This document shows positions 22,201 to 34,200 of a stretch of DNA of 64,000 bases, in pieces. The position numbers were made by a program. This stretch comes from Nitrospinales bacterium (lineage in GTDB: Bacteria; Nitrospinota; Nitrospinia; Nitrospinales; VA-1): NCBI GenBank assembly GCA_965262115.1, contig OZ253496.1:512001-576000 (forward strand). The letters run 5' to 3'. How positions within the stretch are numbered: the first letter of the stretch is position 1; every line of letters begins with the position of its first letter.

Positions 22201-25200
22201 ACTTGAAGCAAATCATAATGCCCATATATCAACATCCTCGATGAAGCCGAAAATATACTTAATTACTTACGGAATACTCGAGCTAATTATTTGGAAAATA
22301 AAAATACGGGAAATAAAAGCGAACTGAGTGAAGCGTTCTCATTTATGGGGAGTACGCTGGAGATCTCTATGCAAGAGGTAAATCCTTCTATATGAGTACT
22401 ATTTCAGTGAAGCCCCTTTCCTCAGAAGATCGTGATCGGGTTCGGCAAATTGTATTGAACGCCAGTGAGCCAATTGCGCCGTTTTGGCCCATGCGGACCA
22501 TGATCGCGCAGAATCCCATTCATGGATTGGAATATCTGCCGTTTGATCAGGCTGTTCGAAAAGGCCAGGCCCTCCTTGGTGGAAATGGGTATCTTGCGAA
22601 TGAGGAGTATCGTCAATTTTACCGAAACGGCCGTATTACCAAAGAAAGTTTTAAGCGCGCTTTTTCCAGGGTTGGGCCTCGCCCCGATGGACAGGTTTTT
22701 ATTGAAGTTGGAAGTCGAAAGGTTACCCCAAAAGATGCTTGGCAATTACACATACTTTTTGGCTTCGAGGAATTGCCATTATCCCTCTTGGAATGGGAGT
22801 TAAGCGGTGGTGGAGCTACAAAACAGTTTCGGCAAGATCTTTCCGAGGAATCCCAGAAACAAATTATTGAGCAAACCATCAAAGAATGTGAACAGTGTCC
22901 GGTGTATCCAGAAGAGGCCTACCTGACGAATTTATGGAAGAGTGTGTTAGCCACCTTCGGGCTATCTGATTTTCATGCTTCATCTCAAATATCTGGGGAT
23001 TCGCATTCGCAAACTTCAGCACCCATTTCCTTGTCGCCTCAACAGACCATCAGCGATTGGGTTGATGGTTTGACTGAGGGTGGGGTGGTCGACCAAGTCA
23101 ATAATCAACTCATAGAATGGGTGGCGGCGTTTCTCGATGAAGGATTAGCCGGCTGGGAAATGCCTGGCCGAGAAGTAGGTTTCTACCAAGTATGGCGGAA
23201 CCTGGCGCAGAAAGATTTTTCGGGGCAGCTTCTCGGGATTACAGATTTCGCCCAAAAAGTTCATAGCCTTCCTGCAGCTCCAGAGGACGCGATCCGTTCC
23301 AGCTTGCACCAACTCGAAATTCCCCAAGAACAATGGGAAGATTATCTCTCAAGGCAACTATCATTATTACCAGGCTGGACGCGATACATACGGTGGCTTG
23401 GGGAACACCCAACCTACCATGCGCAACACAAACATCCCATTGACACCACACAATATCTGGCCGTGCGTTTATTCTATGAAATGGAGTTGACCAACATTAA
23501 GTGCCAGCAAGAATGGGGAATTGATGGGACCGTTTCTACCCTGACTGCATATTGGAATGATCGACCCAAAGAATACCACCAACAAAGTTGGCATGGAGTG
23601 CAATCTGGGAATCAAACTAAACAGATGAAATGTCGATATGCTTGGCGATTATTCCATTTGGCACAGTTTCTTGAGTTATCTCCAAGAGAAGTTCAAGATC
23701 TCTCGCTTACTAATGCCCAGATGTTGTTGCAATGGTTAGATCACTTTCCTGCTGATCAACATGGAAGGGTATGGATTGAGGCATACGAAGATTCCTTTCG
23801 AGAGAAGATGCTGAGAAATATTTCAGCGCATCGCGGAACGGTACCAGAATTGGAAACTCGTCCCCATGCACAACTAGCCTTTTGTATCGACGTACGTTCC
23901 GAATCATTTCGTCGCCATATTGAAGCCCAGGGTTCCTATGAAACGTTTGGGTTTGCAGGGTTTTTTGGCATTCCCATTAGCCATCAAGCTTTTGATAGTA
24001 ATCAACGTTACTCTTTATGTCCGGTATTATTGACTCCTAACCATGCGGTAACGGAATCACCTCGGTCGGGAGAGGGAGCGGCGTTAGAAAAATATTCTTC
24101 TGGTACTCGCTGGTACCAACTGGGGCACCATCTTTTTCACGACCTGAAACATCATCCTATTGGGTCGATGATGATGATTGATGTATTGGGATTCTTTTTT
24201 AGTCTGGGGTTGGTGGGCAAGACCTTGTTCCAAAAAAGATTTCGTGGAATGACCTCTACTATCCAGAGTTGGTTGACGCATAGGGTTCCAACCCAGATCT
24301 CAATTTCCACGCCATCTAATCCTCAAAATCCCAGGATCGGAGAAGTGAATGCGGAAGGGATTCCTGACAGGCTTTCTCGGGGGTTTTCTCTTTCGGAACG
24401 GGCGATATTTATCAAAAATGGTTTGCGTGCTATGGGGTTCACCAAAAATTTTGCTCGTTTGGTGTGCCTCTGTGGCCATGGGAGTGAGACCGACAACAAT
24501 CCCTACTATGGGGCGTTGGATTGCGGGGCTTGCGGGGGAGCACCGGGCGATGCAAATGCGCGAGTTTTTGCCGCGATGGCGAATGAACCTGAAGTTCGTC
24601 GCATTCTCAAGGAAATAGGGTTGCCGATTCCCGATGACACCTGGTTTCTTCCGGGGAAACATAACACGACGACTGATCGGGTCGAGTTTTACGATCTAGA
24701 GGAACTGCCTGATTCGCATAAAGAATATTTTCAGGCGTTGAAAAAGAATCTCGAAGAAGCTGGTGCGAAGCAGGCTCTTGAGCGATGCCATCGCATTCCC
24801 AGTGCTCCGACTGAAATTTCTCCAGAGCAGGCTTTTGCTCATGTAGACGAACGCAGTTGCGATTGGGCGAATACTCGACCGGAATGGGGATTAGCGGGCA
24901 ATGGCGCATTTCTCATTGGAAAACGAAAACTGACCAAAGGGTTAGATTTAGGCGGTCGGGTTTTCTTGCATTCTTATGATTCTGCTGATGATCCCCAGGG
25001 AGCCATCCTCGAAAATATCATGACTGCGCCATTAATTGTCGGCCAGTGGATTAGCACAGGCTATTATTTTTCTACGGTTGATCCGTGGGTGTATGGAAGT
25101 GGCAGCAAGGTGTTGCACAATGTCGTCGGGGGTGTTGGGATGATGCTGGGAAGCCAAAGTGATTTGCAAATGGGATTCCCCTTACAAACAGTTAATAACG

Positions 25201-31200: not shown

Positions 31201-34200
31201 TATCATGAGCCTTCTTTATATTTTGAGTTAAATGCGAGATTGTCGAAATTTTTATGGAACTTAAGGGTCTATTGATTCGATGCTTTCAAATCACCTTCTG
31301 AGTTGGCTGCTTGTGCTTCCCTCCTTGGGAATTGGAGCCTTATGCTGTATACGAGACCGAGAAATGGTCAATCGCGTCGCCTTGGCCAGCACCCTTCTCA
31401 CCTTTGGCTTGTCGGTAATCATCTGGATGCAGTTCGATTTTGCAAAAGCCGATATGCAATTTGTTGAACGATTCGAATTAATGCCAACGCTAAAGGTTCA
31501 GTATGCCTTGGGTATTGACGGCATCAGCCTTATCATGGTCGTCCTGACTGCTTTGCTGACTCCCATTGCCGTTTTGTGCTCTTGGAACACTATCAAAACA
31601 AATCTGCATGTTTTTATGGTCCTCATTCTCTTGTTGGAGACAGCCACACTCGGCGTATTTCTTTCGCTAGATTTGGTATTCTTCTATATTTTTTGGGAAC
31701 TTACGATGGTGTGTGCGTACTTTTTGATGGTGGTATGGGGGGGACCGGGTCGAAGCTCTGCTGGATTAAAATTTGTCCTGTATAGCTTTGGCGGTGGCCT
31801 TCTTCTCTTATTGGCTATATTGGGCCTCTATGTTCAGGGTGGACAAACATTTGATCTAGTGACGTTATCAGATTATGCATTTAGCACTTCTACTCAATAC
31901 TGGTTATTTCTCGCATTTTTTCTGGCCTTTGCTATTAAGGTCCCCATGATTCCTTTTCATGCTTGGTTGCCGGGTGCTTATGCTGAATCACCCACTGCTG
32001 GCAGTGTTATTTTAGCTGGAGCATTATCCAAGATGGGAGCCTACGGATTGTTGCGTGTCTGCCTACCTCTTTTCCCTGAAGCTTCCATTTATTTTGCACC
32101 ATTCATTTTATGGCTGTCGATTGCAGCCATTATTTACGGTGGACTCATGGCTTTAGCACAGACTGATCTTAAAAAGCTCGTGGCCTATTCTTCAGTTTCC
32201 CACATGGGTTTTGTCACTCTCGGAATTTTTGTGTTCAATAGCCAAGGTATCCAGGGGGCCGTCTTGCAAATGTTTAATCACGGGATTATTACGGCAGCCT
32301 TATTTATTGCTGTTGGACAATTGTACGACCGCACTCACAGTCGAGCGATTTCTGACTACGGCGGCTTGCATAAACCCATGCCCAGATTTGTTGCATTGTT
32401 CTTTTTGTTTTCAGTCGCCGCCTTTGGGCTACCAGGCACCAGTAATTTCATTGGCGAATTTTTAGTCTTAGTAGGAACTTCTTATGTCAGCTTTGCCATG
32501 GTTATTATCTCTATGGGCGGTATTGTTTTAGCTGCCGCATATATGTTGTGGATGCTCCAAAGGGTGGTGTTGGGAGAGCCATCGACAGAAGCCGCCAAAG
32601 TGCTCCCAGATTTAGCGAATCGGGAATTGGCTACGCTGATTCCATTGGCTATCCTCGTATTGTGTATTGGATTGTATCCCGGACCATTGATGGAGATGAT
32701 GGATGCGAGTGTAACTCACCTCATCCACCAAACAACAGGGCTGCAAGTTGATGAAATATCTCAACTTCCGCTTAGGCCCTAAATAAATCTTTGTCCTTCC
32801 CGTTTTAACTGGACATGAATATCATTGACAAACCCCTTATTTAATAATAGTGTGCCCGTTTCTTAATGGGGTTTGCCCAGTCCAAAAAAAAGCGATTGCC
32901 CGTTATAAATCAGGCTCTCGACTTTTATCGATTAAATTATTCCGTAACCCCTGTTTAGGGAAACCCAGTTTCAATTTGCAAAATATTCATTGGAGGTTTG
33001 TTTAGATGCCCAAATTAGAGATAGGTCCTATCGGTTTACTCCCCCCTTCTGCCGCAGCAATGGGTATTTTCTCGCCTGACAAAGATTCAGGATTGGACTT
33101 GGTTGAAGGAGAGCAGGTTCCAACTGACGAAGCTATCAAAAAAGCCGCGCGCGAAATATTGACTCGTCGCAACCCGACCCTTTTTCCCGGGCCAATGATT
33201 GTTTGGGGGTGGACTAAGGAAACCGTACATAAGGCAGAGTTGGCAATGGAGCTGGTCAATGAGGTCCCCGGTATGAACATAATTACCATGCCCGACTACC
33301 GGCCCATTTATCCTAAAATTGATCCCGAATGGGTGATCAACCCCTGCCATCCAAACCTGACCATTCAGCATAATAAAATTGAGACTTGCATCCTTATCGG
33401 AGTGCATTGTCATTTCGCAAATATAACTCTGAAAATGATCCGCGCAAATACCAATTGCTACACCATGGCATTTTGTCAGTACGATGGTCATGAAGATGCG
33501 CTTATCTCTTTAAGAGATGTGGCTGATGTTAAACTGCAAAAGGTGACGGAAGCAATTCGCCAGGCTAAAAAGGATGGTGTAGAACCTTGGGGCCTGACTA
33601 AGGCAGGGAAAGATGAACTGGAAGATATCGCCGCTCGAAAAGCGGCTGCAAAGGCTCCCGCAAAAGCAGACACCACTCTGTTTATGGGAGAATTGGAGCA
33701 GGGACTGGACGAAAACGCAGAGTGAGCACAGCTTTAAACTAAATAGTTTTACAACCTCAAAAAGTCCGCCTAAATCAAGTGGCGCAGTTGAGAAAAGCGT
33801 TTACAGGGTACGACTTTTGAAAGTAAAAGAGTCTGTGTAGAATATCTTGTGTCGGGAGACCAACTGTACATGCAAATGTCAACTGCCGCATTGCTTTTGT
33901 CGTAGAAAGCAATTTTACAACAAACGGTGCGCCGCCATCTCAATCACCCTGTACACCAGAAATAACTATAACTCCTCACTCTTATTTTTCTCCGTCATAT
34001 CAAAAAACCTGATAATTACTGTCAAATTTGATTATAGCCCATTTAGAAAGAAAAATGAGGTAAATATGTTTATACAAGGCCTTTGAGCCAGAAATAGGCG
34101 AGTTCATTTAATTTGAATAACTTAAAACCACCCCCTCCGCTCAAAACTCTACCTACAATCAAACAAAAAAATCCTCCCTCCAGCTTGACATGACTGCTAG

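Follow-up and report, generated by a model that had tools for sequence, protein, structure and literature searches.

A DabA-headed ten-gene cluster with an Mrp/NuoL/NuoM-type membrane block in a Nitrospinales bacterium: a candidate ion-driven CO2-capture machine

In a 64,000-nucleotide stretch of the genome of a Nitrospinales bacterium, a marine relative of nitrite oxidisers (contig OZ253496.1, positions 512,001 to 576,000; hereafter the window), ten adjacent genes probably specify one membrane machine, in which a DAB-type vectorial carbonic anhydrase would sit on a whole antiporter arm rather than on a lone DabB. Parts of this arrangement are in print: the Mrp genes with nuoL and nuoM appear as "group 3 Mrp" in the relevant passages of PMC7784846 and PMC12342949, and passages of PMC5700660 show that larger DAB operons having NuoM-like genes have been known since 2017. 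Our literature search found no text that connects the Mrp plus nuoL/nuoM cluster with DabA.

The ten genes and their host genome

An ORF check found ten intact genes on the plus strand at 22392-32782, without internal stops, in the order DabA, MrpE, MrpF, MrpG, fused MbhD/E, MrpB, MrpC, MrpD, NuoL-like and NuoM-like; family matches fit, and the gene order first proposed for the locus stands. The features are as follows.

21811..21840, plus strand: promoter-like site TTGACA-18-TATTAT, an 11/12 consensus match about 70 nt 5' of the small wHTH gene
21908..22201, plus strand: small putative winged-helix (wHTH) DNA-binding protein, 97 aa, just 5' of DabA; HTH_24 and HTH_29 weak, below Pfam cut-offs
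22392..25406, plus strand: DabA, vectorial beta-carbonic-anhydrase-like subunit, 1004 aa; PF10070, E 1.4e-265
25416..25898, plus strand: MrpE/MbhA-like; PF01899, E 5.9e-33, the sole MrpE match in the genome
25898..26170, plus strand: MrpF/MbhB-like; PF04066
26164..26463, plus strand: MrpG/MbhC-like; PF03334; TIGR01300, 75.1 bits (cut-off 63.1)
26442..26999, plus strand: fused MbhD+MbhE, 185 aa, NuoJ-like; PF13244 and PF20501; NF009159, 177 bits (cut-off 141)
26983..27435, plus strand: MrpB/MbhF-like; PF04039, matched from profile position 18
27428..27796, plus strand: MrpC/MbhG/NuoK-like; PF00420; NF005621
27793..29265, plus strand: MrpD/MbhH-type antiporter-like; best match NF009305
29291..31231, plus strand: NuoL-type subunit, putative DabB equivalent; TIGR01974, 463.5 bits (cut-off 407.5)
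31280..32782, plus strand: NuoM-type subunit, full length; TIGR01972, 588.6 bits (cut-off 263.8)

Successive intergenic distances from DabA to the NuoM-like gene are 9, -1, -7, -22, 58, -8, -4, 25 and 48 nt (minus denoting overlap). The longest ATG/GTG/TTG reading frame of MrpB begins at 27058, but frame and homology (N-termini compared with L034 and L036) reach back to 26983/26986, so that translation probably starts at an ATA/ATT codon there. The fused MbhD+MbhE corresponds to MrpA TM17-21 and itself bears the name "MrpB" in the group 3 Mrp of P. furiosus (PMC8415708, section 13). Upstream, the wHTH protein recurs at the same place with 77-99% identity in 11 Nitrospina-type loci and with 51% in L050; the minus-strand ORF overlapping its gene reaches just 48-58% in most of those loci. 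Promoter-like sites show no excess across the region (14 found versus 19.7 expected from shuffles), and the one listed is a consensus match only.

Contigs from RNA libraries (4 runs, 3 studies) span 22374-32800 at 90-99% identity and bridge the junctions DabA/MrpE/MrpF, MbhDE/MrpB/MrpC, MrpD/NuoL and NuoL/NuoM, although they derive from relatives, may include DNA and are no proof of one transcript. Against the single-machine reading, the Nitrospira marina proteome table in supplement file 2 of PMC8115632 gives 0 for mrpA-G, alt_nuoL_1 and alt_nuoM_2 in all six samples.

The host genome is a single contig, 93.9% complete, with a single copy of DabA, a single MrpE match and one Mrp only; its six other PF00361 genes make up two nuoL/M/N sets. 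Profile searches of this contig gave zero matches to PF00484, PF00194, PF00916 and PF05982, and neither a second DabA or MrpE nor an alpha- or beta-carbonic anhydrase, SulP or SbtA was matched, which leaves DabA as the sole recognisable bicarbonate route. This bears on an alternative in which the nine membrane genes serve salt and alkaline-pH homeostasis as a group-3 Mrp antiporter enlarged by two MrpA/MrpD-like subunits, NuoL and NuoM. DabA would then be an accessory, perhaps a source of cytoplasmic protons and bicarbonate for pH control or a sensor of CO2 or pH, and inorganic-carbon accumulation would not be the purpose. The Nitrospina and Nitrospira genome papers likewise read the membrane genes as an antiporter: passages on Nitrospira treat Mrp plus nuoL/nuoM as a salt and alkali antiporter, link the cluster with saline or alkaline habitats and report its loss in the sponge-associated lineage IVb (PMC7784846, PMC12342949), and in PMC3578206 an "eight subunit Mnh-type" antiporter is listed as serving salt tolerance. 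Its being the only Mrp of the genome fits such a role, whereas the absence of another recognisable bicarbonate route, together with the invariant catalytic residues of DabA described below, argues against it. We regard this alternative as improbable.

DabA and its putative docking partner

The active site of DabA is intact, as had been proposed. Its zinc site is C498/D500/H696/C711; none of 36 orthologues departs from the C-x-D-x-R motif (C498, D500, R502), H696 or C711, and these residues align with DabA2 of PDB 9rd0. The motif NNPYYGALDCGACGG is present as annotated, but it spans 702-716 rather than 701-716, with D701 just before it. The protein has one hydrophobic membrane hairpin (about 570-612) with an invariant D597, which aligns with a Glu of canonical DabAs, and the canonical NNP[YF]ESALD has become NNPY[YFAG]xA in window-type DabAs.

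The NuoL-like protein matches TIGR01974 over positions 3-628 of 630. It retains E142, D176, K239, H264, H344, H348 and K352 and lacks R175 and the TM12 Lys/Asp pair; in all eight orthologues checked K399/D400 are likewise absent, while E144, D178, K229, H254, H334, H338 and K342 are retained (the meaning of these residues follows passages of PMC13144422). Keeping the TM11 His-His-Lys and losing the TM12 pair is the DabB signature, whereas K399 is retained in both respiratory NuoLs of the genome. Canonical DabBs of the same phyla (n=5) also lack K399/D400, but in them E144 is replaced by Q or S and the chain stops after a short helix; the NuoL-like protein keeps the TM5 Glu and, at its C-terminal end, aligns with the lateral helix and last membrane helix of E. 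coli.

A complex prediction for one pair, DabA 405-1004 with NuoL-like 101-500, gave ipSAE values of 0.70, 0.59 and 0.73, against 0.00 for the best of three controls. When the tool was calibrated, 116 of 157 solved complexes came up to the mark, as did 2 of 215 mismatched pairs, though a pass may partly mirror likeness to solved complexes. The runs share at least 57% of contacts, with partner pLDDT of at least 70, and place the DabA hairpin on TM11 of the NuoL-like protein (DabA 584-610 with 343-354; DabA 701-706 with 357-371). The AlphaFold2 model of the NuoL-like protein itself is weak (mean pLDDT 61.9, the C-terminal half mostly below 50). In the partner loop the canonical IHxxR has become LRSVE, and this change and that in the DabA motif match across the interface described for DAB1 in section 8 of PMC13684180. 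Taken together, DabB-type residues, matching interface changes and the prediction support the proposal that the NuoL-like protein is the docking partner of DabA.

The initial annotation further envisaged three ion channels. Two candidates have complete chains, the MrpD-like subunit (E141, K222, K253, K304, K399) and the NuoM-like subunit, whose proton path E140, K220, K251, H308, H334, E393 is intact; the NuoL-like subunit, because the TM12 Lys/Asp pair is missing, would not be a full channel alone. This sits poorly with the enlarged-antiporter alternative, since the NuoL-like protein lacks the residues of a self-sufficient channel and has a DabB-type vacancy that DabA would fill. The claim that the full-length NuoM-like protein is unlike DabC held at residue level: DabC is described as about half of a NuoM with hydrophobic replacements.

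These comparisons also weigh on a second alternative, which we consider unlikely, albeit less so than the first: the genes might encode two co-expressed complexes, a DAB1-like trimer (DabA, NuoL-like as DabB and NuoM-like in the place of DabC) and, separate from it, a group-3 Mrp Na+/H+ antiporter (MrpEFG, MbhD/E, MrpB, MrpC and MrpD) that offsets the ion or pH load imposed by CO2 hydration or interconverts the Na+ and H+ gradients. In passages of PMC13684180 the third subunit of the DAB1 trimer indeed sits at NuoM's place beside NuoL, P. furiosus MrpEFGBB'CD functions alone without MrpA or an energy-input module (parts of PMC8415708), and our complex prediction was limited to the DabA/NuoL-like pair. 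However, the complete proton path of the NuoM-like subunit contrasts with DabC, and the TM5 Glu, lateral-helix region and last membrane helix of the NuoL-like subunit are replaced or absent in stand-alone DabBs. Most orthologues exceed the window's protein by 27-81 residues in the lateral-helix region, a feature hard to fit in a trimer.

Conservation and evolution of DabA and the membrane block

The same gene order occurs elsewhere in Nitrospinota, in Nitrospirales and Acidobacteriota, and in one "Deltaproteobacteria" MAG. Where 46 of 65 loci had been said to keep nine genes colinear, our recount gives 45 at 38% identity or more, and 46 only if L050 (MrpE 37%) is admitted; 10 others are colinear up to a locus or contig end, 4 stop 623 bases or fewer past DabA, and 5 show no Mrp genes over the 10 kb that follow DabA. 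The setting, described as that of a marine rTCA autotroph, proves broader, for Bryobacterales genomes of 7-8.5 Mb carry the system too, a point in favour of the antiporter alternative, as are similar EFG-DE-B-C-D clusters that lack DabA and carry two antiporter-like genes besides (L067-L069, L084).

Against this, the block type always accompanies this DabA clade in both surveyed lineages where assembly permitted a check. Across 120 Nitrospinota genomes, 37 of 49 MrpE matches immediately follow a DabA that is about 1005-1025 aa long. Operon-type MrpE occurs in 92 of 251 sampled Nitrospirales genomes, 85 of which also have a window-like DabA and a further 4 a divergent DabA immediately 5' of MrpE; in 2 of the remainder the contig breaks off upstream of MrpE, and 1 was not fetched. 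Conversely, in eight Nitrospirales genomes all that is left of window-type DabA is truncated or frameshifted pieces, and in these eight MrpE is without a match. Mrp-linked DabAs all fall in one clade. Genome G228 preserves a joint decay (DabA residues 18-510, partial MrpE, MrpF, MrpG and the NuoM tail), with the block lost from inside, which speaks against two complexes. Co-occurrence, shared decay and the single clade support a functional tie between DabA and the nine membrane genes.

In favour of two complexes, unrelated genes may intervene between DabA and MrpE. That DabA can stand apart from the block also weighs against a single machine: an HtrA-type protease gene separates them in 8 Nitrospirales loci (4 Pfam-checked), a helicase-like gene in L043, and a canonical DabB-DabA pair in L024, L081, L082 and L092; in G142, DabA lies 263 kb from the block. 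From MrpE through NuoL, median spacings in 34 complete loci are overlaps (-4 to -10 nt), and the 4 nt overlap of MrpD/NuoL speaks against two complexes. Trees of 37 operons point the same way. The window's DabA nests in Nitrospina, whereas its MrpE-D block, NuoL and NuoM all cluster with four Nitrospirales loci (Mrp-block identity 77-78% to these and 48-53% to others, save the near-identical L002). The comparison supports the nine membrane genes moving and evolving as one block relative to DabA, with NuoL and NuoM going with the Mrp block and not with DabA. Relative to DabA the block thus changed partners during evolution, which points either to an interface open to exchange or to a bond with DabA looser than those inside the block.

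A proposed ten-subunit machine

How might a single machine work? We infer its physical unity, direction of flow, coupling ion and activity as follows. DabA would dock on the NuoL-like subunit from the cytoplasmic side, with its hairpin and D597 inserted beside TM11 H344, H348 and K352, filling the vacancy of the lost TM12 Lys/Asp much as DabA2 Glu444 does in DabB2. Because the TM5 Glu, C-terminal lateral helix and last membrane helix are kept, the NuoL-like subunit could couple sideways to the NuoM-like and then the MrpD-like subunit, which would link to the group-3 Mrp core of MrpC, MbhD/E, MrpB, MrpE, MrpF and MrpG. Ion flow through this arm, most likely an inward Na+ gradient exchanged for H+ movement, would power hydration of CO2 in one direction, yielding bicarbonate in the cytoplasm, while the NuoL-like channel would take care of the reaction proton; in Nitrospina the small wHTH gene precedes the ten-gene set. 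DabA and the nine membrane proteins are most likely one large ion-driven CO2-capture machine, so far unstudied.

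Gene content, boundaries and genomic setting

The initial annotation had read DabA as the head of a ten-gene operon with Mrp, NuoL and NuoM genes, and this is borne out by intact co-directional open reading frames and family matches throughout window positions 22392-32782.

Genes of the operon, in order
22392 (start), + strand: DabA; PF10070, E 1.4e-265
Genes 2-4, + strand: MrpE, MrpF and MrpG; Pfam/NCBIfam matches
Gene 5, + strand: MbhD and MbhE fused in a single protein, equal to MrpA TM17-21
Genes 6-8, + strand: MrpB, MrpC, then an MrpD/MbhH-type subunit; Pfam/NCBIfam matches
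Gene 9, + strand: NuoL-type protein of 646 aa; TIGR01974, 463.5 bits (cut-off 407.5), end-to-end match
Gene 10, to 32782, + strand: NuoM-type protein; TIGR01972, 588.6 bits (cut-off 263.8)

Of the nine gene junctions, seven are overlaps or gaps of no more than 25 nt, and seven genes lie between DabA and the gene of its likely partner, the NuoL-like subunit. After DabA the order E, F, G, MrpA TM17-21 (MbhD+E), B, C, D is that of group 3 Mrp. MrpB probably starts within the last codons of the MbhD/E gene, at ATA or ATT (26983/26986), rather than at the TTG at 27058, the first ATG, GTG or TTG in the frame, since both the open frame and the similarity to the MrpB N-termini of two related loci (L034, L036) continue upstream of it.

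A 97-aa open reading frame (21908-22201, + strand) lies 190-200 nt upstream of DabA and is kept in 12 of 65 related loci, 11 of them Nitrospina-type (77-99% identity), the other being L050 (51%). It has weak winged-helix matches, is a likely small regulator and is possibly the first gene of the operon unit. A promoter-like site, TTGACA-18-TATTAT, is found upstream of it at 21811-21840. Note that operon boundaries are not based on such sites: a scan of the region found 14 promoter-like sites against 19.7 expected from shuffles, and 23 terminator-like sites against 14.4 expected (sd 4.3), a mild excess located mostly within genes. The surrounding LptD, PyrE, CO_dh-like and DnaK genes are common only to the near-identical L002 among the 65 loci. 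Of these, the CO_dh-like gene stands 3' of the operon (33006-33725, + strand) and encodes a 239-aa protein matching PF02552 (CO dehydrogenase beta / acetyl-CoA synthase epsilon; E 2.2e-36). This protein may be the small subunit of a five-subunit 2-oxoacid:ferredoxin oxidoreductase of rTCA organisms.

The genome, a single 2.68-Mb contig that is 93.9% complete, holds one DabA, one MrpE and nine PF00361 genes, three in the operon and six in two nuoL/M/N sets. The second of these sets (contig C1, 978280-981674, with a nuoN-like gene at 1003753-1005291) is distinct from the nuo cluster at 801-806 kb; in its NuoL, Ala takes the place of the TM5 Glu. We considered whether the operon's NuoL- and NuoM-like proteins might be spares for respiratory complex I and rejected the idea: the genome has two other sets, and the NuoL-like protein is just 34% identical to theirs and without K399. 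A profile search of the genome, which left out gamma-class carbonic anhydrases, returned no beta-class (PF00484) or alpha-class (PF00194) enzyme, no SulP (PF00916) and no SbtA (PF05982). Within the scope of that search, DabA is therefore the only recognisable route to bicarbonate, and the operon appears to be the genome's only recognisable inorganic-carbon system; because all other PF00361 genes belong to the nuo sets, the sole possible membrane partners of DabA lie within the operon.

Contigs from four RNA libraries of three studies cover 22374-32800 at 90-99% identity and span the junctions DabA/MrpE/MrpF, MbhDE/MrpB/MrpC, MrpD/NuoL and NuoL/NuoM; these sequences stem from relatives, may contain DNA and are no proof of a single transcript. 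Cover is little or none at 21600-22391 and 32783-33800, but these flanks are not a valid silent control, since the relatives' flanks differ and the contigs have loose ends at 22374 and 32800. In the consulted part of a Nitrospira marina proteome table (PMC8115632, supplement file 2), mrpA-G, alt_nuoL_1 and alt_nuoM_2 read 0 in six of six samples, which disfavours constitutive expression. There the E-F-G-A-B-C-D-L-M genes have consecutive locus numbers, and the neighbour expected to be DabA is absent from the table.

Conservation, decay and apparent exchange of the membrane genes

How consistently do DabA and the nine membrane genes that follow it (the block) travel together? The 65 related loci come from Nitrospinota, Nitrospirales, Acidobacteriota/Bryobacterales and one 'Deltaproteobacteria' MAG. 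Scored by tblastn, 45 of them (46 with L050) show the full set of nine downstream genes in colinear order, with identities of at least 38%; another 10 are colinear to the end of the available DNA, 4 stop just past DabA, and 5 have no Mrp genes within 10 kb. Earlier synteny counts for these loci agree with this recount.

Among 120 Nitrospinota genomes, 57 have DabA and 45 have MrpE, and for 37 of the 49 MrpE matches the gene immediately before is a DabA of ~1005-1025 aa (pairs matched by hand from search tables). Twelve matches are unpaired. Five of these places were retrieved: two (L070, L071) are ordinary A-to-G Mrp clusters, and three, from other Nitrospinota classes (L067-L069), are DabA-less E-F-G-DE-B-C-D clusters with two MrpD-like genes. 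Two of the latter directly follow F1-ATPase gamma, beta and epsilon genes (L067:11408-13971, L068:1455-4168), and one sits after an MscS gene; a similar DabA-less cluster elsewhere (L084) comes after a SulP/STAS transporter gene.

In a sample of 251 Nitrospirales genomes, 102 have an MrpE match: 1 is noise, 9 are high-scoring and 92 are of the operon type. The high-scoring matches might have been copies of the block without DabA, but the four of nine that were retrieved proved to be ordinary Mrp clusters in A-to-G order. A window-like DabA is present in 85 of the 92 operon-type genomes. As for the remainder, four carry, immediately before MrpE, a DabA that is longer and more divergent (L085-L088), two are cut off by a contig end upstream of MrpE (L089, L090), and one genome was not retrieved. 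G218, G252, G286 and G316, which had looked like genomes with MrpE and no DabA, were dismissed as exceptions, each having such a longer, divergent DabA immediately upstream.

A further 20 Nitrospirales genomes have a DabA match and no operon-type MrpE. Seven of these matches are weak ones to the ordinary DabA type (40-45% identity), five lie at contig edges, and eight are broken remnants.

Nitrospirales genomes with broken DabA remnants
G121, G122, G123, G126, G158, G195, G203, G222

In G122 (L063), residues 1-484 and 953-1001 of DabA are left and the catalytic region is gone; other remnants (L066, L053) are spread over several frames, and no MrpE was found anywhere in the G121, G122 and G123 genomes. 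In G228 (L093) the operon is in decay, with DabA 18-510, a partial MrpE, MrpF, MrpG and the C-terminal part of NuoM left. These remnant genomes (small Nitrospirales; L063-L066, L053, L093) carry an intact ordinary DabB-DabA pair beside the remnant. The genomes are related to one another, and from the differing types of damage we estimate about four independent decay events. The decayed loci fit a loss already in print: a 2025 comparison of Nitrospirales, in the part drawn on here, places the Mrp/Mnh genes mostly in marine lineage IV and finds them missing in sponge-derived lineage IVb (PMC12342949). No surveyed genome that demonstrably lacks the block was found to have an intact DabA of the Mrp-linked clade. 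One genome, G142, has both intact, 263 kb apart; just upstream of MrpE in its separated block (L080:2580-4495) lie genes for an MpsC-family protein (PF10057) and for a LysR regulator.

In a DabA tree with five ordinary DabAs of the same phyla, all Mrp-linked DabAs, the divergent long ones included, form one clade, split from those five by the longest internal branch. Trees of DabA, of the concatenated MrpE-D proteins, of NuoL and of NuoM were also compared for 36 loci and the window. Here the DabA tree follows the organisms and places the window's DabA within Nitrospina. The window's MrpE-D segment, NuoL and NuoM, in contrast, each cluster with four Nitrospirales loci (L034, L036, L038, L049); the MrpE-D segment is 77-78% identical to these and 48-53% identical to all others except L002. 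Other Nitrospina have a DabA 80-90% identical to the window's, yet a block just ~50% identical. This looks like an exchange of the block between phyla with its breakpoint right after DabA.

Imagine that the ten genes encoded two co-expressed complexes, with DabA, NuoL and NuoM in one and Mrp in the other. NuoL and NuoM, however, follow the Mrp genes rather than DabA in the trees, so that the nine membrane genes move as one unit, and such a split is correspondingly disfavoured; we regard two complexes as rather improbable. We prefer to see in the operon a single machine of the DAB type for hydrating CO2, based on an arm composed of a group-3 Mrp and the complex-I L/M pair, an interpretation that we hold to be probable, if by no great measure.

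The DabA/MrpE junction is also the site of insertions. In eight loci of a Nitrospirales subgroup a gene for an HtrA/DegP-type serine protease (Trypsin_2 and two PDZ domains) lies between DabA and MrpE, four of them Pfam-checked.

HtrA-type genes inserted between DabA and MrpE
L034:13272-14804
L045:13092-14666
L052:13102-14682
L056:13073-14572

A helicase-like gene is inserted there in L043, and an ordinary DabB-DabA pair, on the opposite strand, in L024, L081, L082 and L092.

The predicted DabA/NuoL-like contact and the NuoL-like C-terminus

The zinc ligands of the window's DabA (C498, D500, H696, C711) are invariant in 36 sequences and align to those of DabA2 in PDB 9rd0, its only match among solved structures (391 bits). 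The protein has one hydrophobic stretch (589-614), preceded by an amphipathic helix. Within this stretch D597 is invariant in the 36 sequences and aligns with a conserved Glu of five canonical DabAs, and we infer that it is the equivalent of Glu444 of DabA2. A phmmer search of DabA 540-680 against PDB sequences did not align the DabA2 hairpin and gave just chance matches (E of at least 0.4); the equivalence is therefore based on the canonical DabAs of related genomes.

According to the DAB2 report (PMC13144422), TM1-11 of DabB2 match NuoL, Ile stands at the position of NuoL TM5 Glu144, and Glu444 of the DabA2 'finger' substitutes in trans for the TM12 residues Lys399/Asp400 of NuoL. In an alignment to E. 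coli NuoL, the NuoL-like subunit keeps E144, D178, K229, H254, H334, H338 and K342, and has Tyr/Ser and Leu/Tyr in place of K399/D400, which are lost in 8 of 8 orthologues checked. Five ordinary DabBs of the same phyla have lost K399/D400 as well; they have Gln/Ser at E144, keep R175 and, being 564-584 aa long, stop with a short helix. K399 is present in both respiratory NuoLs of the genome. Since every key Glu, Lys and His is kept in the NuoM-like and MrpD-like subunits, neither offers a vacancy like that of the NuoL-like subunit. The operon would resemble DAB2 (PMC13144422) and MpsAB in a partner with TM1-11 conserved and TM12 Lys399/Asp400 absent, an acidic residue in the hairpin of DabA standing in for them in trans. 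DAB2 differs in being a heterodimer whose 551-aa DabB2 has a short axial helix only and Ile for the TM5 Glu (PMC13144422).

Structure prediction supports binding of DabA to the NuoL-like subunit. Complexes of DabA 405-1004 with NuoL-like 101-500 were predicted with ipSAE values of 0.70, 0.59 and 0.73, the best of three controls reaching 0.00; in the tool's calibration 116 of 157 solved complexes attained the mark, as did 2 of 215 mismatched pairs. Contact agreement between runs was at least 57% and partner pLDDT at least 70. The predicted contacts place DabA 584-610 on NuoL-like 343-354 (TM11) and DabA 701-706 on 357-371. This result may be partly due to likeness to solved complexes. Among PDB matches of the NuoL-like subunit, ND5/NuoL is best at 269 bits and DabB2 scores 131 bits. 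In DAB1, according to the section of its report consulted (PMC13684180), the DabA 'elbow' packs on TM11 (His, His, Lys) of the partner, and H328/R331 of the loop after TM11 bond to E704/D708 of the NNPYESALDCGACGG motif. At these positions ordinary pairs have NNP[YF]ESALD and IHxxR, and Mrp-linked pairs NNPY[YFAG]xA and LRSVE: going by the aligned motifs, both sides of the putative cytoplasmic contact change together.

At its C-terminus the NuoL-like subunit can be aligned with both the lateral helix and the final membrane helix of E. coli NuoL, its TIGR01974 match being full-length. Together with the TM5 Glu of the NuoL-like and the TM12 Glu (E393) kept in the NuoM-like subunit, this suggests, by analogy, that further subunits adjoin the NuoL-like one in the complex-I order L-M-D. 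An AlphaFold2 model puts helices at 550-566, 570-604 and 612-645, with pLDDT mostly below 50, so that its C-terminal half is too low in confidence for geometry. The lateral-helix region consists of tandem units of ~27 residues (W-L-W-R..D...I-D-R....I-A..S...A), and the length of the protein ranges from 644 to 754 aa in 46 extracted reading frames.

Lengths of the NuoL-like subunit
644-647 aa: 5 loci
672-679 aa: 6 loci
683 aa: 1 locus
694-704 aa: 26 loci
713 aa: 2 loci
722 aa: 3 loci
729-730 aa: 2 loci
754 aa: 1 locus

The window's protein (646 aa) is of the shortest repeat form. Adjacent repeats are nearly identical in L004 (17033-19225) and L051, and repeat forms occur in 39 other loci too. 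In helical form 27 residues are ~40 Å long, roughly the width of one antiporter-like subunit. One to three extra helix units have no obvious place in a trimer, but the number of repeats differs even among close relatives.

Relation to known systems and significance

With DAB1 (Thermocrinis albus, Halothiobacillus neapolitanus), as the consulted part of its description has it (PMC13684180), the operon shares a ~1000-aa DabA with a beta-CA zinc site, and the ...CGACGG motif near DabA residue 710, and would share a hairpin on TM11 of a NuoL-like partner and a second membrane subunit at the NuoM position. It differs in that the partner is of the NuoL type, above the TIGR01974 cut-off, with the TM5 Glu kept and the lateral and last membrane helices aligned; the NuoM position is filled by a full NuoM with an intact proton path, where DAB1 has a half-sized DabC; between the genes of DabA and its likely partner stand seven Mrp genes; motif residue E704 becomes Y, F, A or G, the partner loop IHxxR becomes LRSVE, and the hairpin Glu becomes Asp. 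Canonical DAB1-type pairs with the exact motif NNP[YF]ESALDCGACGG occur in the same phyla and sometimes adjoin the operon. The operon thus departs from a two- or three-subunit DAB with a short DabB adjoining DabA, its 646-aa partner being of the NuoL type with the TM5 Glu kept. Unlike MpsABC of Staphylococcus aureus, the genome gave no match in a search for MpsC (PF10057).

The Mrp part resembles Pyrococcus furiosus MrpEFGBB'CD and the Mbh/Mbs modules, having the same seven domains in the same order with MbhD and MbhE fused, and likewise lacking the N-terminal domain of MrpA; in the part of the report drawn on, the P. furiosus complex is said to be without MrpA or an energy-input module (PMC8415708). 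Here, by contrast, NuoL- and NuoM-type genes are added after it and DabA before it, and there are no hydrogenase or sulfane-reductase genes. Compared with complex I, no NuoH, NuoA, quinone-module or NADH-module genes were found in window 18488-36210. In cyanobacterial NDH-1MS/MS', CupA or CupB sits on NdhF3/NdhD3 and is driven by redox chemistry via a peripheral arm. The operon is like these complexes in outline, with a CO2-hydrating protein that would be seated on L/M-type subunits at the distal end of an arm of several antiporter units; it is without NuoH, B, C, D and I genes, and CupA is not known to be a DabA homologue. The cyanobacterial system is mentioned in work on DAB (10.1101/476713, PMC13684180). 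An 'expanded DAB' of DabA, a short NuoL-like DabB and three NuoM-like subunits (PMC5700660, clade C) likewise has more than one antiporter-like subunit and is set apart, as described in the portion consulted, by a cut-down DabB and the lack of Mrp small subunits.

Parts of this gene set have been noted before. In the excerpts on which we rely, COGNAT (2017) reported operons in which YbcC/DabA stands together with homologues of NuoL and NuoM (PMC5700660), Desmarais et al. excluded 'genes with divergent operon structure' when they built their DabB tree (10.1101/476713), salt tolerance is linked in the genome paper on N. gracilis to 'an eight subunit Mnh-type' antiporter (PMC3578206), and in Nitrospira a 'group 3 Mrp with additional nuoL/nuoM' is read as a salt/alkali antiporter (PMC7784846, PMC12342949). 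The Nitrospira and N. gracilis clusters are very probably the same as the operon's membrane genes, and the consulted texts and tables (PMC7784846, PMC12342949, PMC3578206, PMC8115632) make no mention of a DabA gene. Outside subscription journals and supplementary figures we found no text linking DabA to an Mrp module; Fig. S8 of PMC7784846 and Fig. S1 of PMC5700660 may already show the DabA gene beside the cluster. An extension of the published salt/alkali view would make the operon an antiporter to which DabA is an accessory, which we consider improbable; we retain the reading of a single CO2-hydrating machine.

What might such a machine do? A bolder and more doubtful proposal is that the operon encodes a redox-free, complex-I-sized, sodium-motive carbonic anhydrase, in which Na+ entering by way of the Mrp core would drive protons along three antiporter-like subunits. 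Proton movement along these subunits would then pull the hydration of CO2 at DabA, which would be located at the distal end formed by the NuoL-like subunit. The repeat number of the lateral helix would in that case set how much of the arm is clamped. The parts of such a machine, namely the Mrp core, the complex-I L/M pair and DabA, would be a living example of how ion arms and catalytic heads recombined as Mrp, Mbh, complex I and NDH-1/Cup evolved.

Among bacterial devices for capturing CO2, DAB pumps are the most widespread, and they are considered for carbon-fixation engineering. An operon in which a complete antiporter arm with intact coupling residues replaces the lone DabB is a natural experiment on how ion flow makes a carbonic anhydrase one-way, beyond what the 2026 structures of DAB1 and DAB2 have shown, and its form would address which ion is used, how many channels take part and by what path a signal travels sideways. 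If our main reading is correct, genes annotated as 'Mrp salt-tolerance' and 'alternative nuoL/nuoM' would become parts of an inorganic-carbon system, a rereading that would touch the main marine nitrite oxidisers, Nitrospina and the marine Nitrospirales.
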